Positions 10,881 to 30,827 of a stretch of 64,000 bases of DNA are shown here, one piece after another. The notes under the pieces were generated by a model, which did not search any database, was not told the origin of the DNA, and was given only the letters and a program-made list of their open reading frames with translations. A program made the translations under genes and the position numbers. Numbering within the stretch: the stretch's first letter is position 1; the number at the start of each line of letters is the position of its first letter. Origin of the DNA: Macrostomum lignano (Eukaryota); the NCBI GenBank assembly GCA_002269645.1, contig NIVC01000875.1, positions 248,001 to 312,000 of the forward strand. Direction: 5' to 3'.

Positions 10881-10890
10881 AAAAAGTCAC

Positions 10891-11082
10891 TGTTGTACTC
10901 TGCCCCCCTTTCTCGGCACGTTGATTTTAACTCCTGTGTACATTGCATCATAGATGTACACTTACTCTAGAGCAATCGATTACAGAGCTTTGAGCTCAAA
11001 TATATAATAGCACCCCACGCCCAAGTCGGGGCCGTAAGCTTTTGGTTCATCTAAACTTCTGTCTCTCGCGTCAGTCACTACA
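10891..11082 (+). repeat. 5' LTR (192 bp)
   Basis: Matches 30498-30689 with no difference seen by eye. TG...CA ends. Confidence 0.95.
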
Positions 11083-11083
11083 C

Positions 11084-11095
11084 TGGCGTCGCAAG
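11084..11095 (+). promoter_or_regulatory. Primer-binding site
   Basis: TGGCGTCGCAAG, 1 nt after the LTR, complementary to a tRNA 3'-CCA end. The tRNA species was not identified. Confidence 0.75.
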
Positions 11096-11102
11096 CTAAG
11101 CT

Positions 11103-14100
11103 ATGTCTACTGAAAACAGTGGCCAGACACGCAACGTTGTTCAACTGCAACTGCCTCCACCTGAGCCATTTAACGTCAACCAAGAAGCACACGTACTGTC
11201 ATCACGGTGGGAAGATTGGTCGTCGCGCTTTCTGTGCTTCATCCACGCCTCCGGAGTCAAGGATCCGGCCCAGCAGAGACAAGTCCTGCTCTACACAGGC
11301 GGGAGGGAGCTGGCTGAGCTATACAAACAGCTGACCAACAGCGGAAACACCGTCGAAGAACTCATCAAGGCTTTCAAGGACCACTTCACAGGCCGCAGGT
11401 GCGTGGTGTTCTCAAGATACGAGTTCCGAAACTGCACGCAGCAACCAGGCCAGAGCATCGACGCATGGGTCAATCAGCTATACAAGGCCGTGGAAAGCTG
11501 CGACTTCGACAATTTGCGCGACTACCTCATCCGCGACCAGATTGTCGCCGGATGCAACACCGAGCAACTCAGAGGACGGCTACTGCAGACCGCCAACATC
11601 AACTTGCAGGATGCACTGCAGCTGTGCCGAGCCTTCGAAGCCGCTAGCTACCAGTCAGCGGCCATGGAGTCACGCCGCGACGAGACAGTCAACTCAATGA
11701 GGCGCACCAGAGGTGAGCAACAGAACGGACCATCGTACAAGCCTGGCAGCAAGTCCAAGTGCTACCGATGCGGAAAAACCGGGCACCGTAGCTGCGACGC
11801 GGCCAAAGGCAAAACATGCAACATCTGTAAAAAGGTGGGCCACCTGGCGAAGGCCTGTATGTCTAAGGGCAACTCCAGAGACCGCGTGCACACCATTGGC
11901 GGTCAGCATCAACACCCGGAAGAATCCAGCAAGTCACCAAGCGACGAAGGGGAGGTCTTCTGCCTGACTGCGAACAAGCTGCCGCTGATGAGCATCTCTA
12001 TCAACGGTAAGCGGGTCGAGGCGCTCATCGATAGTGGCGCCAGCTGCAATGTCATCGACCAGGCGACTTTTCAAGATCTCAAAACAGCCAAAACGCCACT
12101 GCTTCGATCAGTACGGCAGCTGTACCCGTTCGGCTCGAAGACACCACTGGCGACCGCCGGCAGAGCTGAGCTCCTTGTCAAAATCAGCGGTCTCGAGGAA
12201 GTAGTGGACTTCACAGTAGTGCAAGACCCGGGCGTCACCATTCTCGAAAGGGCAACGGGCGAGAAGTTCAGAGTACTACGAGTGGGTCCGGCGCCGGAAA
12301 CTCGCATCAACAGCATCGGGAGTGCCGACAAGGCAAAGGCAATGGAGTCCTCGAGTCCGGAGGCCAACTCAGCTAACCTTCCAGCAAACCTCCAGCTTGA
12401 TAACATTCTCAAAAAGCACCGGGAGCTCTTCCAAGGAGTTGGCTGCGTCAAGGACGTCGAAGTGAGCATCCGACTCAAGGACAACGCTATCCCAGTGTGC
12501 CACCCGCCTAGCCGAGTGCCAATCCACCTACGAGACGCAGCCATCAAAGAGCTCGACGCCCAGCTCAGCGAAGGCATCATCGAGCGAGTATCTGAGCCTT
12601 CCGAATGGGTCGCTAGAATGGTAGTGGTACCAAAAAGCACTCCGAACCAGGTGCGAATCACCCAAGACCTTCGAGACCTCAATCAATACGTAGTGCCGGA
12701 GAAGCAGCCGATTCCGACCTTTGAAGAGGTCACAGACGAAATGGACGGTTCACACTTCTTCTCGGAGCTAGACATCAATAAAGCCTTTCACCAAATCAAG
12801 GTCGAACAGGAGTCACGCAAGTTTCTGACCTTCTCGACACCACTGGGCTTAATGAGGCTCACGCGCCTCTGTATGGGTTTCACGTCGGCTTCAGAAATTC
12901 TACAGCGTGTGATGTCTACAGTACTCAGCGGCCTGCCAGGAGTGAGATGGGTGCACGACGACATCATTGTGTATGCCCGGGACATCCAGGAGCACAACAG
13001 TCGCCTAGCCAGCTGCCTTCAGCGTCTTCAGGGACACGGCCTGACTCTCAACCCGTCCAAGTGCAAATTTGCGGTGCCGGAGGTCAACTTCCTGGCCATG
13101 CGACTGTCAGCAAAAGGGATCCAGCCAGCTGAAGCCAAGGTGTCGGCGATCAAAAGCTTCAAAGAGCCAACGAGCGCCTCGGAAGTCCGCTCCTTCCTCG
13201 GTCTGGTTACGTTTGTCAGTCGCTTCATGCCAGGCCTGGCGGACATGACGAAGCCGTTGCGGGACCTGACCAAGAAGAGTGCAAGCTGGCAGTGGGGCGA
13301 GCAGCAGGCCAAGGCTTTTCAAGAAGTCCGAGATCGCATCGCAGTCGACAGCACACTGGTCTTCTTCGACAAGCACCGGCACACCGAACTCGTTGTCGAC
13401 GCCAGCCCCATCGGACTCGGCGCCATTCTTTGCCAGATTCAGTCCGACGGCTCATCCAAGCCGGTTGCATTCGCAAGCAGAGCCCTATCGGCAGTCGAGT
13501 CGAGGTACTCACAGACGGAACGGGAGGCTCTCGCAATCAAGTTCGGCTGCCTGAAATTTCGACACTATCTCAGCGGCGCCGCCAACTTTACTGTCGTCAC
13601 CGACCACAAGCCGCTGACCTTCATGCTCAAGCCCGGCTCGCGCCCACCTCCACGCATCGAGCGCATGGCGCTCAGCATCCAGGACATGCAGTTCAGCGTC
13701 ATCTATCGGCCAGGCCCGTTCAACCCGAGCGACATCCTCAGCCGGCAGCCAGAGCCCGCTCCGACATCGATCAACATCGGCGAGATCCTGGACACAAACT
13801 TCATCGGCAGCATCGCGCAAGCGGCGACGCCGAGAGGCCTGTCCCTGCAGCAAGTCCGGGAAGCCACGGCCCGTGATGCCATTCTATCGACTGTGCTGTC
13901 ATCATTGAGAACAGGCAATTGGGATCTGCGGGACGACAGCATCCGACGACTGCACGCCGCCAGGCACGAGTTGACCGAGGCTTCTGGTGTTCTGCTGCGA
14001 GACCAAAGATTGGTAATCCCAAAAGCCCAGCGGCCCGTTGTCCTGCAGCTGGCTCATCAAGGACATCAAGGCGAGACCAAAGCACTACGCCGACGCGACA

Positions 14101-14138
14101 AGATCAGCCGCAGAGCATCGCATCCAAGCTGGCGATAA
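11103..14138 (+). CDS. Gag-Pol polyprotein (Zn knuckles, protease, RT, RNase H); integrase core deleted
   Basis: Two Cys/His knuckles (CYRCGKTGH; CNICKKVGHLAKAC), protease LIDSGAS, RT VHDDII, RNase H VDASPIGLG/YSQTEREAL/TDHKPL, and integrase start AHQGHQG followed by loss of similarity. Confidence 0.9.
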   Translation: MSTENSGQTRNVVQLQLPPPEPFNVNQEAHVLSSRWEDWSSRFLCFIHASGVKDPAQQRQVLLYTGGRELAELYKQLTNSGNTVEELIKAFKDHFTGRRCVVFSRYEFRNCTQQPGQSIDAWVNQLYKAVESCDFDNLRDYLIRDQIVAGCNTEQLRGRLLQTANINLQDALQLCRAFEAASYQSAAMESRRDETVNSMRRTRGEQQNGPSYKPGSKSKCYRCGKTGHRSCDAAKGKTCNICKKVGHLAKACMSKGNSRDRVHTIGGQHQHPEESSKSPSDEGEVFCLTANKLPLMSISINGKRVEALIDSGASCNVIDQATFQDLKTAKTPLLRSVRQLYPFGSKTPLATAGRAELLVKISGLEEVVDFTVVQDPGVTILERATGEKFRVLRVGPAPETRINSIGSADKAKAMESSSPEANSANLPANLQLDNILKKHRELFQGVGCVKDVEVSIRLKDNAIPVCHPPSRVPIHLRDAAIKELDAQLSEGIIERVSEPSEWVARMVVVPKSTPNQVRITQDLRDLNQYVVPEKQPIPTFEEVTDEMDGSHFFSELDINKAFHQIKVEQESRKFLTFSTPLGLMRLTRLCMGFTSASEILQRVMSTVLSGLPGVRWVHDDIIVYARDIQEHNSRLASCLQRLQGHGLTLNPSKCKFAVPEVNFLAMRLSAKGIQPAEAKVSAIKSFKEPTSASEVRSFLGLVTFVSRFMPGLADMTKPLRDLTKKSASWQWGEQQAKAFQEVRDRIAVDSTLVFFDKHRHTELVVDASPIGLGAILCQIQSDGSSKPVAFASRALSAVESRYSQTEREALAIKFGCLKFRHYLSGAANFTVVTDHKPLTFMLKPGSRPPPRIERMALSIQDMQFSVIYRPGPFNPSDILSRQPEPAPTSINIGEILDTNFIGSIAQAATPRGLSLQQVREATARDAILSTVLSSLRTGNWDLRDDSIRRLHAARHELTEASGVLLRDQRLVIPKAQRPVVLQLAHQGHQGETKALRRRDKISRRASHPSWR

Positions 14139-14238
14139 AGTCCTCCGCAGAAAAATCCAGCCATCGAAAACGGACACGCCATTTGAAATTCAGCCTTGGA
14201 CAGTCACGGAGGTCAAAGGCGATTCTGTCATCCTGGAG
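14082..14238 (+). pseudogene. Gypsy integrase C-terminal domain, left part (continues at 30160)
   Basis: KHYADA...IQAGDKVLRRKIQPSKTDTPFEIQPWTVTEVKGDSVILES is typical of the Gypsy integrase C-terminus and is in a different frame from pol. Confidence 0.75.
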
Positions 14239-15135
14239 AGTAGAAGGCATGAGGGGGGGCTTTTGGGACAAAATTTTTCACATCCTCCATAATCCCATTA
14301 AATCCATCCATATTATCCCCGACAGAATCAGAAAAAAGGGGGGTCGCACTCGCTCACAAAACGTCCTCCATAATCCCATTAAATCCATCCATATTATCCC
14401 TGACAGAATCATGAAAAAGGGGAGGGGCCGCACTTGCTCCGAAAACTTCGAACATAATCCCATTAAATCCATCCATATTATCCCTGACAGAATCAGAGCA
14501 GGTGTCAACTGATACCTGTTATGCTCACTGTGGACACCTGTTATGCTCACTGACACTGACATCATCCACCGACATCCACCCATAACATTTCTAAAACAAT
14601 CAGAAAATAATCTGCATTCTTCTTCCCACATTCAATCCGCAACGTGCTACCAGATCCCTAAGACTTTAAATCATCAGCGCAGGGTCCTCACCCTTTAAAA
14701 AAATTAAATTCTCAATAAAAATGTTTCCAGTTGTCTCTCCAGGTTCTTATTAAAAAACGCACGAGCCTAATTACAAGAGTAAGTACCGATGCAAACTTGA
14801 ATGCAGCGAATACATGAGAAAATATTGGCCCAACGTTGATATCAATGTCCCTAATATTAATCTAGCTCTCCAAAGACATTGGTTTCATAAGTATGGAGTA
14901 ACCTATGTAAAAGATTATGAGAGCTACTATAACTTTGCAGAAATCATTAGGCAATTGTGATTTCTTACATTCTCTCAATGATTAACGTCAATACAAACTC
15001 TTCACCGTTGAAATCAACACCCATCCCATCTTCAGTCTCAAACTGTAGCACAATCTCGTGAATCTCCTTATTACTCAATACAACTCTTTTCACTGGATTT
15101 GGTTTCTCTACCACCATCTGTCCTCCAGCAACAGA
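14239..15135 (+). repeat. Left terminal inverted repeat (about 0.9 kb)
   Basis: Reverse complement of 29258-30153, with a handful of substitutions and small indels seen by eye. Confidence 0.95.
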
Positions 15136-16451
15136 AGAAATCGAAAAGCAAACACAAAAGCTTACTAAAAACATACTGAGTTCATTTATTCACAAGTATA
15201 TTTACATAAAACAAAGGAAAGGAAAGGAGGAAAGAGCAGATCTGAAGGCTGCGTACGGCTGTTCAGTCCAAGGACTGGGGGAGTCGCCACACACCCCCAA
15301 TTACCCCAGCTAATGCTGGTCCGCGACGTGCAAGCTTAGTTGCAAGGCTTGAAATGAATAAGGTAGAGAAAGAACAATATATTGTAGATCCTCACACAAT
15401 CCAAAATCGATATTCTTCGGATCCAGAATAATATTGATTTTCCTCCCAGTCATTTTGTGAACAGCACTTTCCTGTATTGTCAGGAATTGGCACGAGTTTA
15501 AAAAAAATCCTGGAGATCCAGGAAAGTGTTTAGAAGACTACTATGAGTAGCTTACATTGATAAAATCCTGGAAAAAATCCAGTAAAAGACTTTCCTGTAT
15601 TGTCAGGAATTCCTGTATTGTCAGGAATTGGCACGAGTTTAAAAAATCCAGAAAAAAATCCTGGAGATCCAGGAAAGTGTTTCGAAGACTACTATGAGTA
15701 GCTTACATTGATAAAATCCTGGAAAAAATGGTTGATAACTAAAAAGTGAATCTTCATCAGCAACAAATGATCGGCGAAGTTCGTCAAACACCATTTCGGT
15801 TCTCATGGCATAGTTGCGAACCTGGGTCTCCTCGGCCGCTCTGGAACGAATTCGCTGGTTCTCAACTTTTTCATTGAATAAATTGTGGAGAACTTCTTGA
15901 ATTCTCTCTGATGCCAGTTCGTTGGCATCTAATCCTTCAACAAGGCGACCATGGAGATTTTCTAGGTCGGTCCAGTAGAACGTAATTTTTTGTGAACTAA
16001 AAACAAAGATTTAATCAAAATAAGAGATGTTTCAATTCTTACCACAGGATTATCAGGAAGTAAAAAAATGAATAAACTTACAACATAATGAAATCAGCAG
16101 CCACAACAGTGCAGTATCGTGCGTGACGAAGAATGTGTGCCGGCGAAATAAGCTGAATTTTCTTGCTTGCTTTAACTAGCTTCCGAGCGATCGATTCCCT
16201 CCACCCGCTTGAAGTCCCCATATGTCTAATCTCCTAAGCATTTCTTTGGTTGATTGGGGTTGCCAAAGCGGAAAGGAAAGCATGCGTGGAACTTGTACAT
16301 TCGCAAAATCGATTAGAGGGCTACGCCCCCCCACCTCAGCAAATAGCAGTTACCCCACCCTTTTCAAAATGCAGCTGTCGCGTTTGGCCAGGGTTGAGAA
16401 TAATAGTTAAACCCTTCCCGACTCAAGCGCCCCTCTCTACCCCCAGCTCTT

Positions 16452-16922
16452 TCAGCAGTCTTCCCAATTCATTGTTAGGAGCGCACAAAAAAACTCTGCT
16501 CCTGAGCCTCCGCCCTCTCTCCTCGTGCACCAGCCCTCTCTCCCTGTGCACCCGCCCTCGCCTTCAACCCCCAACCCCAACTTTGTTTTACCAAAAATAA
16601 CAGCTTTAACTAGCTTCCGAGCAATCGACTCACGAAATCCGCTTGAAGCCCCTATATTGTCTAGTCTCTTAAGCATTTCTTTGTCCCAACGATTCTTCTC
16701 CTCAGGAAAATCTCTATATTTAACGTCGTGCCACATGCACACAGAGTCTAGCTCGTTCACAGGCTCATGCCCAGGATTTGGATTATCGTTTGTATCTAAC
16801 TGAATTTCAAGTGGATTCAAAGGCCCGCAATATTTGTATCCGGGAATTGTCCAGCCTTTGTTTGGATGAGGAAGCTTTTGTATCAGTCCATGTGAATCTA
16901 ACTTACCACCAGAGCGTTGCAT
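16452..16922 (-). CDS. Parvovirus-type phospholipase A2 (adintovirus PLA2X-like)
   Basis: PGYKYCGP Ca-loop-like motif, P-x-N-x-LD-x2-C-x2-HD-x2-Y catalytic motif, and C-terminal KLGLG. ATG at 16922. Confidence 0.8.
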   Translation of the reverse strand: MQRSGGKLDSHGLIQKLPHPNKGWTIPGYKYCGPLNPLEIQLDTNDNPNPGHEPVNELDSVCMWHDVKYRDFPEEKNRWDKEMLKRLDNIGASSGFRESIARKLVKAVIFGKTKLGLGVEGEGGCTGREGWCTRREGGGSGAEFFCALLTMNWEDC

Positions 16923-16951
16923 TATTTTATTTTAAATTTTTTTTAAAAAAA

Positions 16952-17947
16952 ATGACAGATCAGAAACTTAAAAAACTCTACTACAGCGACAAAGGATTCT
17001 TTGTAGGAAAAAATGCAGTCACCAAACTCACAGAACTAAGTAAGGAACCAAAAGCTAAAGTAGAAAAGTGGCTCTCTAAGCAAGCAGTCTACCAAGTCTA
17101 TTTCCCACCAGTAAAATTTGAAAGGCCCCATTTCAGTATTAATAAACCTAATGAGGCGCACCAAGCAGATCTTCTGTTTCTCCCCAATGACTCAGGCTAC
17201 AAGTATGCTCTCACAATTATAGACGTTGCTTCCAGATATAAGGAAGCTCGCCCACTCAAGACGAAGAAGTCAGAAGCAGTTGCAACCGCACTCCAGGATA
17301 TTTATAAAAACTCTCCGCTCACATACCCCCAAATCTTTATGACCGACCCTGGTAAAGAATTCATGGGTGCAGTGAAATCACTTCTACATAAGTATGACGC
17401 AAAAATTCGCTATGGCAGAACTGAGCTCCACAGAGACCAGGCTTTTGTGGAAAGATTCAATCTAACTCTAGCCAAGAGGCTATTCACTAAGCAGACAGCT
17501 GAAGAGCTGAAACTAAAAAGTGGTCAGTACTATACCAAGTGGACAGACCGGCTCCCCACTGTTATAGAGCAACTGAACAATGAAGTCACGCGCATGACTG
17601 GATTGAAACCATCCCATGCAATTAAACAAGACACTGTCGAACTTAAGTCATCTCATAGAACAGACACCTCGAACTACCCTAAGCTTCCAAGAGTTGAATC
17701 ACCATACATACTGACAAACTCTGAGTTTCTACGCTTTTTATATCTACCTGGAGAGCTAGAGAAAGACACTAAAAGAAGAGCTACAGATCCATACTTCAGC
17801 CTTGATGTACATAAAATAGACAGACATTTTACCTCCGACTCCGGTGACTATTACTTTTTATCTCAAGCCTTTAACCCTAAATCCCCCACGCGGTCATTCA
17901 CTAGAGCTGAACTCCTCGTGATACCAGCTGACACGGAAATTAATTAA
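16952..17947 (+). CDS. Retroviral-like (rve, DDE) integrase of the Polinton, intact
   Basis: HQADLLFL, IDVASRYK, TDPGKEF and FVERFN motifs. ATG at 16952 after an A-run; the ORF track starts too far upstream. Confidence 0.9.
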   Translation: MTDQKLKKLYYSDKGFFVGKNAVTKLTELSKEPKAKVEKWLSKQAVYQVYFPPVKFERPHFSINKPNEAHQADLLFLPNDSGYKYALTIIDVASRYKEARPLKTKKSEAVATALQDIYKNSPLTYPQIFMTDPGKEFMGAVKSLLHKYDAKIRYGRTELHRDQAFVERFNLTLAKRLFTKQTAEELKLKSGQYYTKWTDRLPTVIEQLNNEVTRMTGLKPSHAIKQDTVELKSSHRTDTSNYPKLPRVESPYILTNSEFLRFLYLPGELEKDTKRRATDPYFSLDVHKIDRHFTSDSGDYYFLSQAFNPKSPTRSFTRAELLVIPADTEIN

Positions 17948-17963
17948 AATATTGAAATAAAAA

Positions 17964-18419
17964 ATGACAAAGATTGAAACCAGAACCATCAATATATTCA
18001 ATAAAATCATTGAATCAAAGAAACCAGGTCTTATATCAATTAAAGGTATCAAAGTAAAAATCGATCCCAGGCAGCAAATAGTTCAATGTAATGAACAAAG
18101 ACACATCATCACAGATGAAAAGTCAGGAGGAATCCTACCATTAGCAGCTCTTATCCCAATCATTGCAGGCGCTGTAAGTGCCGCAGGTGGTGTAGCTGGA
18201 GGTGTAGCAACTGCTGTTAAAGCTGGGAATGATAGAGCCCACCAGCTTGAACTGCAAAAGATTGCAAGAGACAAAGGTATAACAATTAAGGCAGGAGATG
18301 GTTGCCCTGATTTTGATGATTGTGATGATTGTGAGCATGAAAATTCTGTAAGCAAGTCTGACATTGTCAAAGCCATCATGACACTGCACAATGCTGGGTT
18401 TACAATAATGAGGATGTGA
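17964..18419 (+). CDS. Small virion protein with an adenovirus protein X-like hydrophobic peptide
   Basis: KSGG^ILPLAALIPIIAGAVSAAGGVAGGVATAV resembles the adenovirus pX C-terminus (GGILPLLIPLIAAAIGA), recalled from memory. Confidence 0.6.
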   Translation: MTKIETRTINIFNKIIESKKPGLISIKGIKVKIDPRQQIVQCNEQRHIITDEKSGGILPLAALIPIIAGAVSAAGGVAGGVATAVKAGNDRAHQLELQKIARDKGITIKAGDGCPDFDDCDDCEHENSVSKSDIVKAIMTLHNAGFTIMRM

Positions 18420-18541
18420 TGAGGTTTAAAACCCCACTTTATCCAGCTTCATAAACCAACGCTACTTATAGGATGTAGAAGCAGTTCAACTTTTCTATCA
18501 GGGTGGTCACCCTAAAATTTTTTTAATATTTTAGAGAAAAA

Positions 18542-21500
18542 ATGCCAAAAGCCAATCCAGCAAAAGATTCGGTCAAAAAATATTTTTCAAAGGGCGTCTC
18601 ATTTCAAGACAAAAGTAATTTACTAAGAGAAGCATGTAAACAAAAGTTTAACACCGACCCTGGTCACCTGGGAAGCTATGAAAAACAGTTGGAAATCATC
18701 AATCAATTAGAATCCAACCAGTATGCGCCTATAAAAAATCCTGCAAAGGAACACCAAGAGAGGAGTCGCAACTTAGTTAACAAATACGAAACTCTCACTG
18801 GTGAAAAAGCAAAGTACCCACAAAATAAGCAGGAACAAGAGAAATTAGAGCAATTAATCCATTTAAAAGAGTCGGAGCTTGCCACTGAAGAGATTAATTT
18901 TGCACAGAGGAAGTTTACAGAACATTACATAGAGTACACAATCCCAATTAGGGATACCACCGCAAACATTTACGACTATAAAGACAGCATCCAATCAGTT
19001 GTTGATCACACACTCAAAACACGCAAGACCTTTAAACTACAGATATCATTCAATATTGCGTTTTATATGCCTGCAAAACCCACAGAGCATCTCGAGTATT
19101 ACATGAAAACAAAGGCAAAGCCATTCACCCCAACAGACACACTGGATCCTTTCCTTCAAGATGTCACTAAGAAAATTGAAGCGTTTACATCCAGAGGTTC
19201 CGGATGGGTCGTGGGACGGATTCAAAGAGCGACTGTCATGGTCATGAAATATGACCCACTTAAAGCCTCCTCTTATATAGAGCTCCCACACAAGCTAGCC
19301 AGCAAAAAAGCTTGCATAAATGTTAAAAATAAAGACAATTGCTGTGCTCTATGGGCAGTACTTTCTGCACTTCTTCATGATAGTGTCCCTCACCACCCCG
19401 AAAGAACCTCAAATTATCAAAATTATTTCAACTACTATCTCATCAAATGCGAAAAGAAGGGAATCAGGTTTGACAAAGGAGGCTTGGCGATCTCTCAGAT
19501 CCCAAAGCTAGAAGAAGTGTTTAATAATAAAATTAGAATCACAGTCTTTGAGTGGAGTGAGAAAACTGAGAAAGTTCAACCGGTCAGATGTAGCAAAGAC
19601 GTTTTAGATCCTGAAGGGAAAAGGTGGACTGAAGTGAATCTTCTAGTGATTGGTAATTTACTAGAGGAGGCTCACTATGTTTGGATTAAAGATCTTTCAA
19701 GACTCATTCACAAGCAATTGAATAATCATCACGATGCTGTTGCCATCTGCCGCTTGTGCCTTAAGCATTACAGTGGACCTGAACGCTTTGAAAAACTAAC
19801 AGAGCATGAATTATCATGCGAGGATCACCCAACAAACTGCTCTCTTCCTTCAGCTGAAGAGAAGTATCTCCGGTTTAAGAACTATCACAAGATGGAGAAG
19901 CTCCCATTTGTTGTATATGCTGATTTCGAATGCTCAATCATGCCAGAAACTCAAAAACAAACTCAAAAACCAACTCAAACTCAAAAACAAACTCAAACTC
20001 AAAAACATGTCCCCAATTCAGTAGCATATGCCTTTATTAATACAAAAGGACTTGTTGAGTATAATTATTTCTTTGGAGAGCAGTGTGTGGAGCAGTTTAT
20101 TGCCAGAATGTTAGAGTTGCAAAAAGTGATTAGCACCCTTCAACCTGTTCCAATAATGATGACTGAGGAGGATGAAAGCAATTTCCTATCAGCAACTCAT
20201 TGCCACATCTGCAGGAAACATTTAACTTGCACTAATATTAAAAACCCCACCGTTAGGGACCACTGCCACTTTACTGGGAAATTTAGAGGTGCAGCGCATA
20301 ACACCTGTAATCTAAAGCTAAAATCGAACATTCATGATCTAACGATATTTTGTCACAACGCAAAGAACTATGACATGCATTTAATAGTTGAAAAAATCGG
20401 CATGATTCCAGACATACACCTTGATTGCATCGCAGAGAACAAGGAGAAGTTTAAGTGTGTTGATATTAAACAGGATAATTCGGGTAAAGGTAAAATAAGA
20501 CTGAAGGATTCATATCAATTTCTAGCTGCCAGTCTAGACGAACTAAGCAAGAATCTAAAAGATGAACAATGTACATATACAAAGATGTTTGCAAGTAAAA
20601 TTAACAACACTGATGAATCATTTAAACTCCTGAGAACCAAAGGCTTCTACCCCTATGAAAATATTACTGGGTATCACGTATTTGAAGAAGGTTTACCACC
20701 ACAGGAGAAGTTCTTTTCAAAGCTAACAGACTCTGGAATCTCTGACAAAGACTATGAGCACGCGAAGCATGTCTATAATTACTTTAATTGTCAAAACTTC
20801 TTCCAGTATCACCTGCTTTACCTCTACACAGATGTGTTTCTGCTGGCCGATGTGTTTGAAACCTTCAGATACACCTGGTACACAGCATATGGCCTCGATC
20901 CAGCACATTATGTGTCTCTGCCTGCCACTAGCTGGGAATCTTTGCTTAAAATGAAATGGGATCAAGATCCAGATTGGTACATTGAACTTCTTACAGACAT
21001 TGACATGTACAATTTTGTCGAATCGTCAAAGCGAGGGGGATCTCAATTTGCGTTAACAGGTATGCAAAAGCAAACAATCCCTACATTGAATCTTACAATA
21101 AGGAGCAGCCCTCAAACTACATTACTTACTTGGACGCTAATAATCTCTACGGGTGGGCGATGAGTCAAGATCTTCCAGTTAGAGATTTTCGATGGCTACC
21201 CTCATCAGAATTAAATGGGACTTTTCATTGGCTGCCATTTATGAGGTTGATGTTTACATTCCACCAGAGCTTCACGACTATTTCTCTGACTTTCCACCCT
21301 TCCCAGAGAACATCAAGTGCCCGAAAATAATCGAAACTCCCAATGGAACTTGGCACCTGTCAGGAACAGAAAAAGAACATACAGAGAAACTAACACAGAA
21401 TCTAAACAACAAGACACGTTACAAAATCCATTACAAACTGCTTCAGTATTTTATCTCACTTGGTTGCAGGGTCACCAAAGTTCACAGGGCTCTTACATTT

Positions 21501-22394: not shown

Positions 22395-22482
22395 GAGGTG
22401 AAGGTTAGATTCGGGCACTGGAGATTAGGAGATTAGGAGATTAGGTTTAGGTTTAAGAGAAAGTTTATTAAAACTCATAAAA

Positions 22483-22882: not shown

Positions 22883-22886
22883 GGGT

Positions 22887-23627
22887 TCATTGTGCATTTC
22901 TCGTCGTCCTTCTTACCGAATTTCTTGCCGACTTTCTTTCCGCATAATGTTGAAAAACTTTCTCGAGTTCATTTTTCAGCTGACTCATGTCATCAGTACC
23001 GACCATGTTCAAGTTCATTCGAATTGATTGTTCATAAAGATCCTGAATGGTTTTGAACTCATCCTCTGAAATGAACTTATCCTCGATTGCCCTTGAAATG
23101 TACCCTATGATTGAAGTGTGCACCCCTTTCTCTTTTACTTGCTTCTCCTGTAGCTGCTTTAGTTTTTTTCGCCTGTTTCGCGCTACTGCTCCAGTAATTG
23201 CTGAAATAAGTCCACATGCAGCACCTACTGAACCAAGTGGAATTGCGATTGGGGCTGTGATGGCTGGCAACACTGAGACAGCTGCAGCAGACCCAGTTAG
23301 AACAGACACAGATCCTAGAATCATATTGCTGTAGTCGAAAAATTTACAGTGGCTGTCATAGCGCTTAATTTTCTTTGTGTTGTGGAAAATATTTTTTTCA
23401 AGATCATCGCGCATTTTTTGAATCTCCACCAATCGAAACTGCTGAGAATTACAAGAAATGACAGGGTAGAGTTTTTGTTGCTCATATTGGGGTGCATTCA
23501 GATTCGGTGCATTCAGGCTTGGTGCCAGGTTTTGTGTGTTCGAATTCGGTGCCATTGAGTTTGGTGCTGTCGGTATTTTAGGTTCAACGTATTGAGACTG
23601 ATCGTATAGAGAATTTTGTTGGGCCAT
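22887..23627 (-). CDS. Polinton accessory protein with a predicted two-helix hydrophobic hairpin
   Basis: Intact 246-aa ORF. FRLVEI...LE coiled coil, hydrophobic ILGSVSVLTGSAAAVSVLPAITAPIAIPLGSVGAACGLISAI, basic RNRRKK, and ISRAIEDKFISEDEF. Confidence 0.6.
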   Translation of the reverse strand: MAQQNSLYDQSQYVEPKIPTAPNSMAPNSNTQNLAPSLNAPNLNAPQYEQQKLYPVISCNSQQFRLVEIQKMRDDLEKNIFHNTKKIKRYDSHCKFFDYSNMILGSVSVLTGSAAAVSVLPAITAPIAIPLGSVGAACGLISAITGAVARNRRKKLKQLQEKQVKEKGVHTSIIGYISRAIEDKFISEDEFKTIQDLYEQSIRMNLNMVGTDDMSQLKNELEKVFQHYAERKSARNSVRRTTRNAQ

Positions 23628-23720
23628 TTTTTTCTCTAGAAAAAAATAAAAAAAATTATAAAACTATCCGGTTGAAAGATCTGTTTTCTTTTTGATAATT
23701 CCATCTGCACCGCCGGTTGT

Positions 23721-24530
23721 CTAGGCGGCTCTCGTGACGCCGGAGGATCGCGAGTCCAGCAGGCAGCGGCTGGGCGGCTGACGTTTGAGAGCGTGCCGGA
23801 TTACTCCGGCGGGGTCCAGAGCTCCTTCTACTCGATCTGTAGACATGACCGGACGAGCAGTAGATTCTGCTTCATCAATAGCAATATCACGAAGATTGAG
23901 TGTTCTCTCCAGACGATTAAGCCTCCTTATTATTTTACCCCAAGAGCTATACATTCCGTTTAGATAGCTACTGTGTGATACATCGTTTCTCTCTAATGCA
24001 TCAAGTCTTTCTTTAATTCTATCATGCAACGCTGTTGACTGGTTCATGAACTCTTCTAAATTATTGACTTTAACTGTGTTGGTTGCGACGTTTTCTTTAA
24101 TTCTATCATGTAATGCTGTTGACTGGTTCATGAACTCTTCTAAATTATTCACTTTAGCTATGTTTGTGAAAACTCCTCCTTCAAGAATACGCATCCGTCT
24201 ATCAATGGAATTTCCCAGAAGATTAACTGATGATCTCAAGCCGTTGATTAGCGAGACTATCGAAGTTATTTCTGACCTTAGTTCATTAGTTGCGTTTAAC
24301 AACGGCACATAAAGCTTATCACTTTCAAACTTCTGCCTAGCTACTTTAAGCCTGAGATCTTCCATGTTTATTTGCAACTGGTGCATGGAGCGCTCTAATT
24401 GTTTCAGTCTGTTTTTATTCAGTTTGATCTCTGGGATCTCTTCATCAGTGTTAATGTAGCGCTTATCAAGGAAGGAAGTTGTGAGAGTGCTGTTGCCTGT
24501 AGTTGACTCACCTGCAAAATTAATAGACAT
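23721..24530 (-). CDS. Coiled-coil protein with an internal duplication (fibre/spike candidate)
   Basis: Intact 269-aa ORF with a heptad pattern. KVNNLEEFMNQSTALHDRIKE occurs twice. Confidence 0.5.
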   Translation of the reverse strand: MSINFAGESTTGNSTLTTSFLDKRYINTDEEIPEIKLNKNRLKQLERSMHQLQINMEDLRLKVARQKFESDKLYVPLLNATNELRSEITSIVSLINGLRSSVNLLGNSIDRRMRILEGGVFTNIAKVNNLEEFMNQSTALHDRIKENVATNTVKVNNLEEFMNQSTALHDRIKERLDALERNDVSHSSYLNGMYSSWGKIIRRLNRLERTLNLRDIAIDEAESTARPVMSTDRVEGALDPAGVIRHALKRQPPSRCLLDSRSSGVTRAA

Positions 24531-24546
24531 TTTTTTAAATAAAAAA

Positions 24547-25345
24547 TTAAAGTAAAATTCTTTTCTCCTTATTAATCATGACAAACTGATAGGGTTGGTT
24601 CCACTTTTCATAGCATATGTTAACAAATTCCTCCTGTGATATTGTTCTGTTAGAGTTCTTAGCTGGATATGTAATGTGAGCTGGGGCAATGACCTCATTA
24701 TAAAATCGTTTCAGTCGATCCTGTGGTATGGTTGGGAAAAGGAGAATCAAATTACAGTTACCTCTAATTGTTTTATTTGGCAGTTCAAACCAGTTTTGGG
24801 CAATGTAAATAACATTGCAGTTATTGTGTCTACCCGGGTGAAATAATTTTCTATCTGTTTCTGGGGACCGGTCATGCAGTCATCAAAGACAATCAGGTGC
24901 TTTCTCCCCTTTTCTAGTTCATCAGGTTGAGGTAAGAGTTTAGTTTTAGGATCTATCTGTGGATCTCCATAAGTGAAAACTTTAATGTTTTGCCATTTTT
25001 CATTGTCTGGGATGTGCTTTGCGTATTCAGTGCTACAACTTCCGGGTTGCTGTTGAGGTCTTTTTGATGTCTAAAACATTGAATAATATCTTCCTTGTTG
25101 AGTTTGTTCTGTAGGCCCGCTACTAGCATTTTATACTCATCTTGATACAGAGTGGGTGAATAGATATGTAGTGTGTCATAATCGAGGAATCCAGGTCTGA
25201 GGAGCATGTTAAAAACTCTGAAGGTTTTCCCTGACCCAGATGAGCCAACAACAATGCATCGGAAGTGCCCTGGAATTATCTCGTTGTGAGCAAATTTTAT
25301 CTGATTGCGTGTCCAGTGGGGATGAAAGTCGTTTGTGAAGTCCAT
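24547..25345 (-). CDS. A32/FtsK-like packaging ATPase; two 1-nt frameshifts
   Basis: Walker A GSSGSGKT, Walker B HLIVFDD (about 24870-24900), and reconstructed FTRGRHNNCNVIYIAQ. Confidence 0.9.
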
Positions 25346-25560
25346 TTTTTATGTAAAAAACTTTTTCTTTTTAAACTTGTGTATTTAAGACGCGTGTGTC
25401 TCTTTGCGGGATGTGTATGTGTGTGTCTCTTTACGGGATGTGTGTGTCTTTTTTTCGGGTTGTGTGTGTCTTTTTTTCGGGTTGTGTCTTTTTTTTGACT
25501 AGTCCTACATCCGACTAGTCCTACACCCTCACACCTCTTTTATCGTCAGGGTGCACCAAA

Positions 25561-27168
25561 TTAGTCAAATTTAAAACCGCCTCCTTTCTTATATTCAGCT
25601 CTCATCTTTGCGTAGATGGCTGGATCGACACTATCTGCACTCGGTGCAAGGGGTTGAATATCTGGTATTGATTTCCGGGTTTCATTAACCGTATCTTTAA
25701 TCTTCTTGGCTGCTGTGGCTACACTGCCAGCCGCTTCGGCAACGTTCTTGATGTTCTCTTTGTTCTCTCCAATGACCTTAAAAATCTTGGCCCCCTGAGT
25801 GATCAAATCGGCAAGACCGTTCCCAGAGCGTTCTTTTCTTGGATAGTGGCCTGCAGGGAAAAGTCCAGATCCGCGTTTAATGAGATTAAGTTCCTCTTTG
25901 TCATAGTATTTGTCAATGTCTTTTTCGAAAATAATTGGCATCTTTTTAAATAGAAATTTATTTTTGTTAAACCGTGAAAGCAAAAGTTCTCTTGCTCTTT
26001 TATCGATATATTTTCTCTCAAGCATTTTGTCTAGGATATGAACGAACTCTTTTCTATTCTCATCTTTCATTCCAGTCTTTGCCGCTCCTAGAAGAACAGC
26101 TAACCGCTTGTAGAATTCAGGCATGCCTTTTCCGGAAGAGCTTGGCGGTGATTCGAATGATTGGTCAGAGTAGGAACTGTCATGTGGCGCTTGTCTTTGT
26201 TGAGGTGTGAATACTCTGTCATTGATTCGCTTCATTCGTTCTGGGGAGAACTGTTCTAATTGTCGCCAAGTATCAGGGTTTGTATCTTTGTACTGGGAAA
26301 TCTCATTTGGCCCTGCTTTTTCAAGCGCTTCTAGTACTTGTTCGGGTGTGATTTGTTGCTGTGGCGGTGGAGGTTGTTGTGGTTGTGGTTGTGTTTGTGG
26401 TTGCTGCTGTTGTGGTTGTTGTAGTTGTTGTTGTAGTTGTTGTTTTGGTTGCTGCTGTTGTGGCTGTGGTTGTTGTGGTTGTTGTCTTATGACCTCTTCT
26501 TGATCCGGTAAACCAAACCATTGTTTAAAGTATTTGTATTTTCTAAACCTGTTCAAGTCAATCCTGTTTTCATGTAAAACTTTCAAAACACCGTTGTTCT
26601 TGAGAATGTCTATGTCCCTCTCTAAAGCGAAGGTAACCAGATCTCTATAATTCTTTAATTGCTTCTCGGATATTTTTTCCTGATTTTTAGTCATGTAGTC
26701 GAGTAAACTTTGAGTGAAGGGGATTCGTTTAGTTTCTGCGCCTTTATTGATTGAAATAGTTTGCTTCGTCACTTCAATGTTGTAATCCGCCGGTTCCCCG
26801 GTAATATTTTTTCGCCAGGCGCTAATTCCAAATATATATTTTCCTTCATCCGTTACGGGGCCAAAAAAGTTATCCGTCACTTTCATCTGCACTGGTTGTC
26901 CTGGTTGCTGAGCCTGTGGTTGTCCCGGTGAAGATGGGATTTTACCCAATGTGTTTTGCAACTGGCTCTCTTGAATATCATCAATTGTTTCCTTCACAGT
27001 GTCGATGTTTTTCTTCGCTTCTGTGTATCCAGGTTTGTGAAATTCGGTGGCTGCTTGGACAAATTCATTGTAAGATTGTTGTTCTTTGTTGATTAGTCCG
27101 GTAACTCGTTTCTCTGCTTGCGCCAGCTTTTCTAGTTCAGAGATATGATATGAACTTTTCCGCTTCAT
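25561..27168 (-). CDS. PZ-like core Polinton protein with a Gln/Pro linker
   Basis: Intact 535-aa ORF. RLAVLLGAAKTG...EFVHILDKMLERKYI resembles the conserved PZ ('GasderminX') helix motif as recalled. Several GxG-hydrophobic sites. Confidence 0.55.
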   Translation of the reverse strand: MKRKSSYHISELEKLAQAEKRVTGLINKEQQSYNEFVQAATEFHKPGYTEAKKNIDTVKETIDDIQESQLQNTLGKIPSSPGQPQAQQPGQPVQMKVTDNFFGPVTDEGKYIFGISAWRKNITGEPADYNIEVTKQTISINKGAETKRIPFTQSLLDYMTKNQEKISEKQLKNYRDLVTFALERDIDILKNNGVLKVLHENRIDLNRFRKYKYFKQWFGLPDQEEVIRQQPQQPQPQQQQPKQQLQQQLQQPQQQQPQTQPQPQQPPPPQQQITPEQVLEALEKAGPNEISQYKDTNPDTWRQLEQFSPERMKRINDRVFTPQQRQAPHDSSYSDQSFESPPSSSGKGMPEFYKRLAVLLGAAKTGMKDENRKEFVHILDKMLERKYIDKRARELLLSRFNKNKFLFKKMPIIFEKDIDKYYDKEELNLIKRGSGLFPAGHYPRKERSGNGLADLITQGAKIFKVIGENKENIKNVAEAAGSVATAAKKIKDTVNETRKSIPDIQPLAPSADSVDPAIYAKMRAEYKKGGGFKFD

Positions 27169-27198
27169 TTCTTATTTTATTTTATTTTTAGTTAAAAA

Positions 27199-28542
27199 AT
27201 GAACGACCCACTGACACCAGTTTTCTACAAAATTAACAAGCCTATTTTGAGTGATGATAGCACAATCAAAGCGACACAAGTTAGAGTTCCGAGTCACTAG
27301 AACCAGAATGAAACTAATTTGGGTCCGGGTCAAACACTGACTTTTACATACAATGGATGTTCGTCTCTGGTTAGTGTGCACAGTCTTAAGAGCGGCTTCC
27401 ATATGACATTTCAATTCAAGACAAAGGGTGGTGCTAACATTGTTATGTTAGGTATTATGTTATGTTATTATGTTATGTTATGTTATTATGTTAGGGTCGT
27501 GCTAACATTGACAAGCATGATGCGGATGTGGCTCTGATCAGTAACTTTTGGGCGTACATGTTCAAGGAGTTTAGTGTATCGAATGGGAGCACTGAGTTGG
27601 AGCGAATCGCCAACTTTGGAATTGTCTATGACGCTCATTGTTTGATCGAGAATCCTGATTTTATTCAGTTGGGAAGTGGTGCAGGTTTTATTGCAGATGA
27701 AAAAGAAGGAGACATCAATGACAGTGGCTATAAAAAGAGGAAGAAGAGATACAACTATGCATTGCAAGGTGCTGATGATGCTGCTAAAAACCCGCTGTAT
27801 CGGTCTGTTGATGTATTTGTACCACTGAGATTCATGAGTGGATTCTGTAATACATTTAATCGACTGACTAGTAACTTTAGCTACACCTTTAGGATGACTA
27901 GAGATGATCGCAGTAGAGTGTTGTGGACTGGGGCGGATCACACAAGGATGGAGGTGAAGCTAACCGGAATCGAGCTGTATTTGGAAGTCATTGAGCCAAA
28001 GACTGCACTAAAAGCGGATTATCTTAAGGCAATAGAGAAGGACATTGATGTTGCATACACGGCCTACATGTGTTGAGATGAGCGAAACGAAACTAGAACA
28101 AACATCTGCATTAAAGAGGGATCATGCAGCAATCCAAGGTATATCATTATTAACATGAGAAACCCAAATAGCATTATACAGTACGCTACATGCATGGAGA
28201 CGTGCGGTCCATTCAGCATGAAATCAGTGATAATCTTTACCCTGCACTGCCACAAAATGGAGATTTCAGTCAGAACAAGATTAGCAAATTTTACAGCGAG
28301 TTGGTCGACTTGGCTGTGAAAGAGAACAATGGAATTGCTATCACTGCTCTTCAATATGGAACTCTATATCCAATGTGGGCTCTGATGTGTCTGCCAGACA
28401 AATGCCTACTGATAACAGCCCTGTGAATATCGTGACTAACATTGAGAGGACTACCGCAACACCCGTGGACCTGTACATTATCTATGCATTTGAGAGGAAG
28501 GTGAAGCTTAACATGATCAACAATTCATCCAGTAAAGTTTAA
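27199..28542 (+). pseudogene. Major capsid protein (double jelly-roll), disrupted
   Basis: ATG at 27199, TAG at 27298, 68-bp insertion at 27443-27510, TGA at about 28074 and further frameshifts. The reading ALISNFWAYMFKEFSV...VFVPLRFMSGFCNTF...F-x-M-x-R is MCP-like, and the gene lies directly upstream of the penton. Confidence 0.75.
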
Positions 28543-28555
28543 ATATTTTTTTTAT

Positions 28556-29428
28556 GTGAAAAAACTGGAAGCGATTGCTGAAAGACTAAACAACATTGTT
28601 TCACACTCTAAGGAGAGCATTCCTATTACAATAACTGGGCGAATTAATGACTCAAACGGGATGTTTGTTGAAAAATTAGAGCAGGCGATTCGCCTGGATC
28701 CAGGCGCTAATTACCATGTCTATCTTAACGACTTCACTGGTTGGTCAAACGTTCCCAATGTGATGGCAGCAAATAATAAGTTTTATTACAAATGGAAAGG
28801 TGCAGCAGCAGACCCTGTGGTATTCCATGTGAGCACGCAGAGTGTGGATACCTACAATAACTTTCTAGAAAATGTCTTTACTAAGAGAGGCCATTTTGAG
28901 ACACCTGATGCGAGTAAGCCAGATAAAAAATTGTTCCCTGTCAAACTAACCTATGATCTCACTGTAATGAGAGTGGTCATGCAAGTTCACAAAGATGCGG
29001 AGGTTGAGTTTAAAGATGACACTTGGTATAGGGAACTGGGATTCGAGAAGAAAGTTTATAAGGCAGAATCCGCGGCGCGGACTGCCACTCAAGCATCGGG
29101 GACTGTTAGAATGGTCCGGGAAAGTGTAAGCGGTTTGTTCTTAGCACCCAATATTGCAGACATTGTAAAGGGTTTGAATATTCTAATCAGAAACAATCTC
29201 AGTCTTGATTGGGTATTTAAGGGAAAGCGAACGAATATTTTGTACAACATCTCCAACTCTGTTGCTGGAGGACAGATGGTGGTAGAGAAACCAAATCCAG
29301 TGAAAAGAGTTGTATTGAGTAATAAGGAGATTCACGAGATTGTGCTACAGTTTGAGACTGAAGATGGGATGGGCGTTGATTTCAACGGTGAAGAGTTTGT
29401 ATTGACGTTAATCATTGAGAGAATGTGA
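28556..29428 (+). CDS. Minor capsid (penton) protein; start codon unclear
   Basis: AIRLDP...YHVYLNDFTGWSNVPNV...NNKF and IVLQFETEDG...VDFNGEEFVLTLII are penton-like. The nearest ATG (28554) is followed by TGA. Confidence 0.75.
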   Translation: MKKLEAIAERLNNIVSHSKESIPITITGRINDSNGMFVEKLEQAIRLDPGANYHVYLNDFTGWSNVPNVMAANNKFYYKWKGAAADPVVFHVSTQSVDTYNNFLENVFTKRGHFETPDASKPDKKLFPVKLTYDLTVMRVVMQVHKDAEVEFKDDTWYRELGFEKKVYKAESAARTATQASGTVRMVRESVSGLFLAPNIADIVKGLNILIRNNLSLDWVFKGKRTNILYNISNSVAGGQMVVEKPNPVKRVVLSNKEIHEIVLQFETEDGMGVDFNGEEFVLTLIIERM

Positions 29429-30153
29429 GAAATCACAATTGCCTAATGATTTCTGCAAAGTTATAGTAGCTGTCATAATCTTTTACATAGGTTACTCCAT
29501 ACTTATGAAACCAATGTCTTTGGAGAGCTAGATTAATATTAGGGACATTGATATCAACGTTGGGCCAATATTTTCTCATGTATTCGCTGCATTCAAGTTT
29601 GCATCGGTACTTACTCTTGTAATTAGGCTCGTGCGTTTTTTAATAAGAACCTGGAGAGACAACTGGAAACATTTTTATTGAGAATTTAATTTTTTTAAAG
29701 GGTGAGGACCCTGCGCTGATGATTTAAAGTCTTAGGGATGTGGTAGCACGTTGCGGATTGAATGTGGGGAGAAGAATGCAGATTATTTTCTGATTGTTTT
29801 AGAAATGTTATGGGTGGATGTCGGTGGATGATGTCAGTGTCAGTGAGCATAACAGGTGTCCACAGTGAGCATAACAGGTATCAGTTGACACCTGCTCTGA
29901 TTCTGTCAGGGATAATATGGATGGATTTAATGGGATTATGTTCGAAGTTTTCGGAGCAAGTGCGGCCCCTCCCCTTTTTCATGATTCTGTCAGGGATAAT
30001 ATGGATGGATTTAATGGGATTATGGAGGACGTTTTGTGAGCGAGTGCGACCCCCCTTTTTTTCTGATTCTGTCGGGGATAATATGGATGGATTTATTGGG
30101 ATTATGGAGGATGTGAAAAATTTTGTCCCAAAAGCCCCCTCATGCCTTCTACT
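29258..30153 (-). repeat. Right terminal inverted repeat
   Basis: Reverse complement of 14239-15135. Confidence 0.95.
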
Positions 30154-30159
30154 CTGGAG

Positions 30160-30384
30160 AGCACGGGCGGCAGCAACTGCATGCGCCACGCAAGCGACGT
30201 TAAGCGACTGCCAGAGCGGCCAACAGGAGACGGACCAGACGAGACCGGCGGTCCAGAAGGCGACCCGACGGCCGCTTCGGCACCCGCGGTGCCGCCGGCC
30301 GCAGCCGGTGCGGGGGAGCTGCCAATCGCGAACCGTCCGCATCCAAGAAGCTGCAAACTACCGCATCCCAATTATAGGACCTGA
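30160..30384 (+). pseudogene. Remainder of the Gypsy integrase C-terminus
   Basis: Removing the Polinton and one TSD restores the frame ...DSVILE-STGGSNCMRHASDVKRLP. Confidence 0.75.
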
Positions 30385-30483
30385 TTTTTTTCGTGCAAAA
30401 CTGACGAACCTATAAACCTCTTTTTGCTTTTTTTGCGCATGACATTCATTTTTTTTAAATCCGATTTTAATCCGTTAATCTCC

Positions 30484-30497
30484 GCGAAGGGGAAAGA
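30484..30497 (+). promoter_or_regulatory. Polypurine tract
   Basis: gcgaaggggaaaga immediately before the 3' LTR. Confidence 0.8.
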
Positions 30498-30689
30498 TGT
30501 TGTACTCTGCCCCCCTTTCTCGGCACGTTGATTTTAACTCCTGTGTACATTGCATCATAGATGTACACTTACTCTAGAGCAATCGATTACAGAGCTTTGA
30601 GCTCAAATATATAATAGCACCCCACGCCCAAGTCGGGGCCGTAAGCTTTTGGTTCATCTAAACTTCTGTCTCTCGCGTCAGTCACTACA
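30498..30689 (+). repeat. 3' LTR (192 bp)
   Basis: Matches the 5' LTR. Confidence 0.95.
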
Positions 30690-30827
30690 GTCACTAAAAC
30701 CAGTTGTAGAAATGAATCCAACAGATATCAGAAAGATGACGGCCAGTCCCTCAAACCCATCTCCTTCTCCACCCTCAGTTACAAGGGAACCTCAGCTGAG
30801 ACTGAAGAGGAGTCTGCATACCTGTTT

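Follow-up and report, generated by a model that had tools for sequence, protein, structure and literature searches.

A 15,915-bp Polinton lies at 14239–30153 within a Gypsy retrotransposon of Macrostomum lignano, and it probably arrived there by ordinary, nearly sequence-blind integration, not by seeking transposons. The nesting in the window (the whole 64,000-bp stretch of DNA analysed here, whose coordinates are used throughout) is likely an ordinary one. The two elements, with their target-site duplications (TSDs), long terminal repeats (LTRs) and terminal inverted repeats (TIRs), are arranged as follows.

10886–10890 (left) and 30690–30694 (right), + strand: Gypsy TSD GTCAC, a perfect duplication
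10891–11082, + strand: Gypsy 5′ LTR, 192 bp, identical to the 3′ LTR
11103–14138, + strand: Gypsy gag-pol frame, with CCHC, protease, RT, RNase H and the start of the integrase zinc finger; ends out of frame past the deletion
14080–14094, + strand: junction of a 683-bp deletion, between imperfect 15-bp direct repeats
14233–14238 (left) and 30154–30159 (right), + strand: Polinton TSD CTGGAG
14239 and 30153: Polinton ends, AGTAG and CTACT
14239–15135, + strand: Polinton left TIR, with 84-bp subterminal repeats
29258–30153, − strand: Polinton right TIR
30160–30497, + strand: Gypsy remainder, comprising the integrase C-terminal tail, 3′ UTR and purine tract
30498–30689, + strand: Gypsy 3′ LTR, 192/192 identical to the 5′ LTR

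A sequence-only reading had proposed a Polinton inside Gypsy with both TSDs preserved and a readable order of events, Gypsy first and then Polinton; both points are borne out by the TSDs, the empty allele and the gene set. The empty allele, CTGGAG AGCA(C/T)GGG, which that reading had suggested looking for, is present on 17 other contigs, and the filled allele is found solely at the window locus; the search for other loci with the same composite, also suggested there, returned none in the genome. For Gypsy, paralogous empty sites at C754, C28 and C27 continue directly into the right flank. The Polinton TIRs (897/896 bp) differ by 6 substitutions and 2 gaps and are 99.0% alike. An 8-bp reading of the Polinton TSD was rejected, since it would leave the ends asymmetric.

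The retrotransposon has the hallmarks of Ty3/Gypsy: direct LTRs with TG...CA termini, a PBS-like TGG at 11084, a purine tract (PPT) preceding the 3′ LTR and a TSD within the 4–6 bp range. Its gag-pol frame matches PF00098, PF13650, PF00078 and PF17917 in Pfam, is 98% identical to residues 1–998 of an uninterrupted copy and, with its stop at 14138, falls 100 bp short of the Polinton. Projected onto the uninterrupted copy, whose Pol has 1355 residues, the insertion lies near residue 1271, C-terminal to the integrase core, which agrees with the earlier placement in the integrase C-terminal coding region; what had been missed is that the rve core of this same copy is deleted. The 683-bp deletion removed Pol residues ~999–1220, including the rve core (1057–1131). 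It affects the window copy alone, and its junction word has no second occurrence in the genome. The Polinton had also been placed between an LTR promoter and a poly(A) signal, which holds as geometry only: the LTR contains no AATAAA, and 11 same-strand AATAAA words lie inside the Polinton. The layout presumably resembles that of the Mag clade. The nearest named Gypsy proteins are from M. lignano (54–66% identity), and the single gag-pol frame with the order PR-RT-RH-INT (present in the uninterrupted copy L069), the short LTRs and the 5-bp TSD are like those of the Ty3/Gypsy (Mdg4) elements described in this species; unlike these, the window LTR has no heat-shock element and the window copy no integrase core (PMC12801592).

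The junctions are read from the assembly alone, and the composite, the deletion or the broken reading frames described below could be assembly artefacts, an explanation that we find scarcely credible. It would fit with the duplicated loci and the one-base differences in homopolymer runs that the assembly contains, with the mismatched TIRs of many Polintons, and with the public contigs of runs X1, X3, X7 and X8, none of which, among the matches listed, spans the Polinton's left junction or the 683-bp deletion. A mis-join, however, does not produce a flawless 6-bp repeat of a word found just once in each of 17 other copies; the TIRs of the window Polinton are each other's closest match; and collapsed contigs reveal presence, not absence. 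Among the collapsed contigs over 10700–29250 (runs X1, X3, X5 and X7), one from run X7 bridges the Gypsy left-flank junction. Over 14040–14280 (runs X1, X3, X7 and X8), contigs among the matches listed read through the empty site and through an integrase without the deletion; at best, this hints at polymorphism of the Polinton at the locus.

The genes recognized in the Polinton are the following.

16452–16922, − strand: parvovirus-type PLA2, uninterrupted (PF08398, E 1e-13)
16952–17947, + strand: rve integrase, open frame of 331 aa (PF00665, E 9e-11, the sole family matched)
17964–18419, + strand: pX-like core protein gene (PF05829, E 1e-6)
18542–22394, + strand: protein-primed DNA polymerase B (PolB), five pieces as assembled (PF03175, E 7e-8, above cut-off; full-length relatives align over all five by tblastn)
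22483–22785, + strand: adenain-like protease, frame ends early (PF00770, E 0.003, under the curated cut-off)
24547–25345, − strand: packaging ATPase, three overlapping frames (PF04665, E 5e-4 on the first piece; Walker A visible)
27199–28539, + strand: double jelly-roll major capsid (MCP) gene, four pieces (via relatives with PF21738; Atlas lead)
28661–29428, + strand: penton (minor capsid), open frame of 255 aa, from its predicted fold; 3′ end within the right TIR

The ATPase and protease matches are both below the curated cut-off, with only pieces scored, and their positions and motifs fit. For the MCP, relatives at 70% and 50% identity have PF21738, as do 8/8 relatives tested. The predicted model of the minor capsid protein (pLDDT 72) points to a penton, the top solved match being the mavirus penton 6g41 (Z 9.7, rmsd 8.2, 213 aligned). 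The earlier description of the Polinton as complete stands for its ends and gene set and fails for its reading frames, those of PolB, MCP, ATPase and protease not being open as assembled. These broken frames, and these only, may reflect assembly error rather than mutation; the window copy and a second copy at C110 show mixed one-base differences, 4/11 of them in runs of ≥3. No group I intron was matched by Rfam in either copy, and GGNCC shows no marked loss from the Polinton (24 observed, 27.7 expected).

With protein-primed PolB, rve integrase, MCP, penton, packaging ATPase and cysteine protease, a size and TIRs within the Polinton/Maverick range of 13–25 kb and 100–1500 bp (PMC10748475), and a TSD, CTGGAG, within the usual 5–8 bp (usually 6), the element belongs with the known Polintons/adintoviruses. 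It shares with the Polintons/Mavericks (class Polintoviricetes), Alpha-type animal adintoviruses, the PF03175-type PolB, rve integrase, adenain-like protease, packaging ATPase, double jelly-roll MCP, penton, parvovirus-like PLA2 and pX-like gene, as well as its 15.9 kb, TIRs, 6-bp TSD and AG...CT ends (PMC8502044). In gene content it has the Alpha adintovirus combination of PolB and a PLA2-bearing virion module. Unlike Alpha adintoviruses with a PLA2X fusion (PMC8502044), however, it carries PLA2 (−) and the pX-like gene (+) separately, on opposite strands.

Copies of this Polinton were collected by their TIRs and their insertion sites classified, as the sequence-only reading had advised. The genome holds 504 exact termini, and the family amounts to at least 250 insertions, with ~250–390 sites in all, which places it at the top of the vertebrate range (median 8, maximum 287; PMC8097293). 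After one chance match and three duplicate rows were excluded from the 33 rows of the paired-site table, 29/29 distinct paired sites have a 6-bp TSD, every one a different sequence. A weak flanking motif was found (A/T at −9 in 112/137 ends, C at −8 in 46/137), and GGNCC is not enriched near the junctions. The 'AG after TSD' rule apparent at both Gypsy sites was discarded, occurring at only 18/137 ends against 9.5 expected.

We then compared 106 other sites (107 with the one in the window) with 320 control points, which represent 80 regions and hence are not 320 independent points. The idea that the Polinton integrase targets transposons, especially Gypsy, as safe havens fares badly here, and we consider it highly unlikely. 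Transposon-coding frames are struck no more often than in controls (3/106 vs 12/320, P=1.0), host-gene-like frames are struck at the control rate (4/106 vs 10/320), and only 1/106 sites lies in the window's Gypsy family, so that most insertions do not fall in one kind of element. Gypsy Pol similarity within ~200 bp is somewhat more frequent (5/106 vs 6/320; odds ratio 2.6, P=0.15, upper 95% bound 11%). Dispersed repeats, detected only where they also occur in 480 kb of control DNA, are about twofold in excess at junctions (~15/106 vs 18/320, P=0.01; P=0.025 among non-tandem positions), but ~85% of sites have no such match. Strong transposon targeting is already contradicted. Minisatellites are rarer at junctions (~11/106 vs 77/320, P=0.002). 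Polinton placement is not uniform, a pattern that either selection or insertion bias may have produced.

One observation in favour of safe havens is a second, independent Polinton, lodged in a different young member of this small Gypsy family (C110; TSD AGGCCA, LTRs 195/195 identical). With ~91 kb of family sequence, 0.03–0.05 such insertions are expected, a chance of ~3–5%. The two insertions, however, hit the element at points ~1.6 kb from each other, their TSDs are unrelated, and the Polintons are only 85–97% alike. Several other repeat families likewise contain two Polintons near each other. Nesting is common in the Gypsy family, since other things interrupt it at five or more further loci (C670, C810/C109, C211/C4283, C2129 and C916). 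The C110 Polinton has TIRs just 84.5% alike inside identical LTRs, and TIR divergence is therefore unusable for dating these Polintons.

The surroundings of the locus bear on another explanation. Host gene frames flank the composite.

7141–8914, − strand: host ankyrin-repeat frames, a unit of an ankyrin/kinase array (Pfam Ank, Pkinase)
37197–37739, 41050–43371 and 44203–45695: further ankyrin/kinase array units in the window flank

This flanking repeat was at one stage considered a histone cluster, which was rejected in favour of ankyrin/kinase. The array has 154 candidate copies in the genome. The integrase might be steered to a chromatin state common to expanded or fast-evolving host arrays (ankyrin/kinase, Mab-21-domain) and young retroelements, which we regard as unlikely, though less so than transposon targeting. 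At least six Polintons have one of 36 ankyrin units within 25 kb, against 0.4–0.7 expected, a clustering that was seen post hoc and among the matches listed, which cover 40/154 array candidates; the six are at different positions and hence independent. Two further Polintons sit in paralogous Mab-21-domain frames, 91% alike, and the second Gypsy-family insertion and the avoidance of minisatellites would fit as well. Against this reading stand the counts at closer range: at least two Polintons against 0.2–0.3 expected within 10 kb of the ankyrin marker, among the matches listed, and array sequence within 1.5 kb at just 2/106 sampled sites against 8/320 control pieces (in 2/80 regions). Moreover, the integrase has no chromodomain match in Pfam, and the same pattern is expected if selection is relaxed in redundant arrays.

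Nearly sequence-blind integration, the reading that we prefer, goes with the following history. First, a young Gypsy copy inserted between ankyrin/kinase array genes, as its TSD and the paralogous empty sites show. Second, a Polinton family member integrated into the integrase tail of this Gypsy, as its TSD and the 17 empty alleles demonstrate. Before or after that, the Gypsy lost its integrase core through a deletion between short repeats, presumably by a template switch or microhomology repair. The 6-bp staggered cut would be made by the Polinton's own rve integrase; outward from the TSD, the statistics show a weak preference for A/T at the third base and C at the second. Copies may survive more readily where DNA is redundant, as in repeats and multi-copy gene arrays, and this would account for the mild Polinton excess there. 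The composite itself would be a dead end as a retro-unit.

Nested pairs of DNA-virus-like elements and retrotransposons have precedents. Ngaro retrotransposons lie inside EMALEs of Cafeteria, some Ngaro types clearly preferring the virus (91%), and related mavirus-type elements show no sequence-specific integration, with 18/29 sites near repeats (PMC8547959); retrotransposons also lie inside cryptophyte PLVs (PMC12220804). In those pairs the retrotransposon is the guest, whereas in the window the roles are reversed and no comparable preference was found. As in nested plant LTR retrotransposons, both TSDs are readable and site sequence preference is weak; unlike there, the guest is a Polinton and no region of the host element is favoured, the two insertions being 1.6 kb apart (PMC6911290). 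Literature searches, which covered subscription journals thinly, found no Polintons nested in or targeting retrotransposons and no comparable controlled survey of animal Polinton landing sites. A search on Polintons in Macrostomum found nothing on the window nesting; the supplements of PMC12801592 and PMC8502044 may list both families.

The 107-site survey provides a small, controlled look at where animal Polintons land. Two Polintons in Gypsy copies with identical LTRs show that this Polinton family has been inserting very recently, and such copies offer an aid to dating. Steering to a chromatin state of host arrays and young retroelements, should it prove true, would give animal Polintons their first demonstrated integration-site preference and make this family a recurrent mutator of fast-evolving host arrays. 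If the array clustering is insertion bias, this genome would be a workable system in which to ask how Polinton integrases select their sites.

The composite in the window is a real, clean and recent nesting, and both of its elements, a Gypsy LTR retrotransposon and a virus-like Polinton, are of known kinds.

Features of the composite (window coordinates)
10891-30689, outer Gypsy: two 192-bp LTRs, identical at 192/192 positions, TG...CA ends
Either side of the Gypsy: TSD GTCAC
11103-14138, Gypsy gag-pol frame: CCHC, protease, RT and RNase H domains
14239 (AGTAG) to 30153 (CTACT), Polinton: 15,915 bp, TSD CTGGAG at either side

The order of events, which the sequence-only reading had held to be readable, is Gypsy first and Polinton second, an order that both TSDs, the empty alleles and the paralogous flanks show directly in the sequence. 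The predicted empty Gypsy allele is present on 17 other contigs, and the host-flank paralogs at C754, C28 and C27 continue uninterrupted through the Gypsy site. The filled form, sought at other loci as well, was found in the window only, with no second copy. One contig from a public sequencing run (X7) reads from the left flank into the Gypsy and matches the assembly throughout. Among the listed collapsed contigs of four runs, none crosses the Polinton's left junction or the deletion described below, which does not prove that such reads are absent; the evidence for the composite is the assembly together with the perfect TSD. The Gypsy landing site (10563-10890) is a decayed frame with no Pfam match, also found at paralogous arrays, and we take it to resemble a LINE ORF2 linker.

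The Polinton had been placed in the C-terminal coding region of the integrase. It does sit in the former tail (about residue 1271); however, the integrase core is lost, and the frame stops 100 bp before the Polinton. Uninterrupted copies of this Gypsy family measure 4517-4561 bp, and one of them holds a 1355-residue frame (integrase zinc finger at 972-1026, rve core at 1057-1131), to which the window Gypsy aligns over residues 1-998 and then from 1212 on. A pair of imperfect 15-bp direct repeats bounds the missing 683 bp. The sequence word that spans this deletion occurs once in the genome (assembly size 764 Mb), and all other Gypsy copies covering that place are without the deletion. The family tallies to about 25 assembly entries and about 91 kb, several entries being duplicates with identical TSD. 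Duplicated loci would fit the hidden tetraploidy of Macrostomum lignano described in PMC5704211. The closest named relatives of the Gypsy proteins are from this same flatworm (54-66% identity). Its LTR elements, as PMC12801592 describes them, are chiefly Ty3/Mdg4, some with heat-shock elements; unlike those, the window LTR yielded none when searched. Other guests of the family include a 338-bp element with inverted ends (L066:872-1209) and a 5.8-kb TG...CA element (L073:1295-7089), an apparent solo LTR of which occupies the same site at a duplicate locus (L072).

The Polinton, called complete from sequence alone, has both ends and the core gene set; the PolB, MCP, ATPase and protease frames are broken as assembled, by either mutation or assembly error.

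Gene content of the window Polinton
PLA2 (PF08398): open frame
rve integrase (PF00665): open frame, no chromodomain match
pX-like (PF05829): open frame
PolB (PF03175): five pieces as assembled
Protease (PF00770, weak): frame ends early
ATPase (PF04665, weak): three pieces as assembled
Major capsid protein (MCP), identified via relatives at 70% and 50% identity: four pieces as assembled
Penton: open frame, assigned by fold, with the mavirus penton as best match (Z 9.7, rmsd 8.2, 213 aligned)
25561-27168 (-): Gln/Pro-rich protein, 535 aa, no credible Pfam match
23721-24530 (-): coiled-coil-like protein with an 84-bp repeat, no credible Pfam match
22887-23627 (-): protein with a hydrophobic Gly/Ala-rich middle, no credible Pfam match

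PF21738 was present in 8/8 of the MCP relatives scanned (32 found). The genes make up the Polinton core set, and PolB and PLA2 are of the Alpha type of adintoviruses; unlike those described in PMC8502044, PLA2 and pX are separate here, not fused. The TIRs (897 and 896 bp) differ by six substitutions and two gaps. The last 57 penton codons fall inside the TIR (29258-29428), so that the left TIR (14965-15135) repeats the end of that gene in reverse. GGNCC sites number 24 against 27.7 expected, and no Rfam match was obtained in this Polinton or in the C110 element considered below.

The insertion was also remarked to place the virus-like element between an LTR promoter and a poly(A) signal. Most Polinton core genes do lie on the Gypsy sense strand, the first of them 5.9 kb from the LTR; AATAAA is absent from the LTR and occurs 11 times on that strand within the Polinton. 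Mobility of a 20-kb retro-unit without an integrase core would be unlikely.

Four exact end patterns recovered 504 Polinton termini genome-wide (136 + 117 + 141 + 110), corresponding to about 250-390 insertions, which is high beside the vertebrate Mavericks of PMC8097293 (median 8, maximum 287). Among paired ends (L008-L227), many Polintons whose TSDs are perfect show TIRs that match at only 80-93% or differ greatly in length, which suggests either mosaic elements, formed when copies recombine, or a mixed assembly. Divergence between TIRs cannot serve as a clock in this family. Short internally deleted derivatives with both ends (0.6-3.8 kb) were seen at C124:22982-23697, C289:58541-59180, C32, C87, C105, C544 and C827, those on C124 and C289 with one common TSD. 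Polinton ends also lie within or beside another Polinton at L128 (C273) and L210 (C217).

Does the Polinton choose transposons? A second, independent one (18,917 bp, TSD AGGCCA) sits at a different position, behind RT, in another young member of the window's Gypsy family (C110:827058-850547; Gypsy TSD ATAAG, LTRs identical). It is 85-97% like the window Polinton over most aligned parts, and its TIRs are only 84.5% alike although the host LTRs are identical. With a chance of 3-5% for one more Polinton in 91 kb of family sequence, this second hit counts against a plain, untargeted reading. The family is interrupted by unrelated sequence at five other loci, and other repeat families have two Polintons each, including paralogous Mab-21-domain frames, 91% alike. 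In the latter, two independent Polintons (L011 on C1377; L141/L142 on C45/C46) occupy gene positions about 760 bp from each other; cGAS-like receptors belong to Mab-21.

A wider survey drew on 150 loci (30 + 120 from end-pattern matches), biased toward long contigs; 139 distinct ends, minus 2 near-duplicates, gave 137 ends and 107 sites, or 106 without the window site, as used in all comparisons. As controls, 80 stretches of 6 kb, located some 45-70 kb from the sites on the same contigs, were read at 4 points each. Junction frames were scanned for 42/50 (the remaining 8 come from three sites known as Gypsy) and control frames for 133/133. The idea that Polinton integrase seeks other TEs as safe havens finds no support here: open junction frames with a transposon domain occur at 3/106 sites (two Gypsy, one Copia) versus 12/320 controls, and those with a host-gene-like domain at 4/106 versus 10/320. 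Sequence similar to Gypsy Pol lay no more than about 200 bp from 5/106 sites versus 6/320 controls (P=0.15). Strong targeting of transposons is excluded. Tandem repeats are rarer at junctions (about 11/106 versus 77/320, P=0.002) and dispersed repeats, as detectable in control DNA only, commoner (about 15/106 versus 18/320, P=0.01). This twofold excess in dispersed repeats remains, and it would equally result if insertions into unique DNA were selected against. Two sites lie inside other Polintons. The TSDs are 6 bp long and unrelated to each other; the positions flanking them favour A/T at -9 (112/137 ends) and C at -8 (46/137 ends).

Nesting of this general sort has precedents. LTR elements commonly nest in one another (PMC6911290), and virophages and Polinton-like viruses with retrotransposons inside them are described (PMC8547959, PMC12220804), some Ngaro types showing a real preference for virophage hosts (PMC8547959). 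According to the same source, the virophages showed no sequence-specific integration: 18/29 of their sites lay close to repeats, and 15 lay in genes. Our literature search, of incomplete coverage, returned no work on how Polintons choose their sites in animals.

The window Gypsy is itself inserted in a tandem array of ankyrin/kinase genes, a kind of which the genome has 154 candidate units; the window also holds intronless host-like frames for a prefoldin subunit (PF02996, 54944-55402) and a NUDIX protein (PF00293, 57051-57500).

Ankyrin/kinase arrays
Window 7141-8914 and 37197-46300: array around the composite
C28:350-388 kb, C754:195-235 kb and C1414:8-48 kb: paralogous arrays

These paralogous arrays bear their own Polintons, at differing positions. 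For 36 of the listed units, spread over 16 contigs (omitting the unit in the window and three whose contigs were incompletely listed), a post hoc count found 6 Polintons within 25 kb versus 0.4-0.7 expected, and 2 within 10 kb versus 0.2-0.3; in the unbiased sample, only 2/106 survey sites touch an array. Such clustering is expected both if selection is relaxed in redundant arrays and if there is a preference at the level of chromatin; we regard a true insertion bias toward multi-copy host gene arrays as rather improbable. Nevertheless, the clustering of Polintons near such arrays is a lead worth following.
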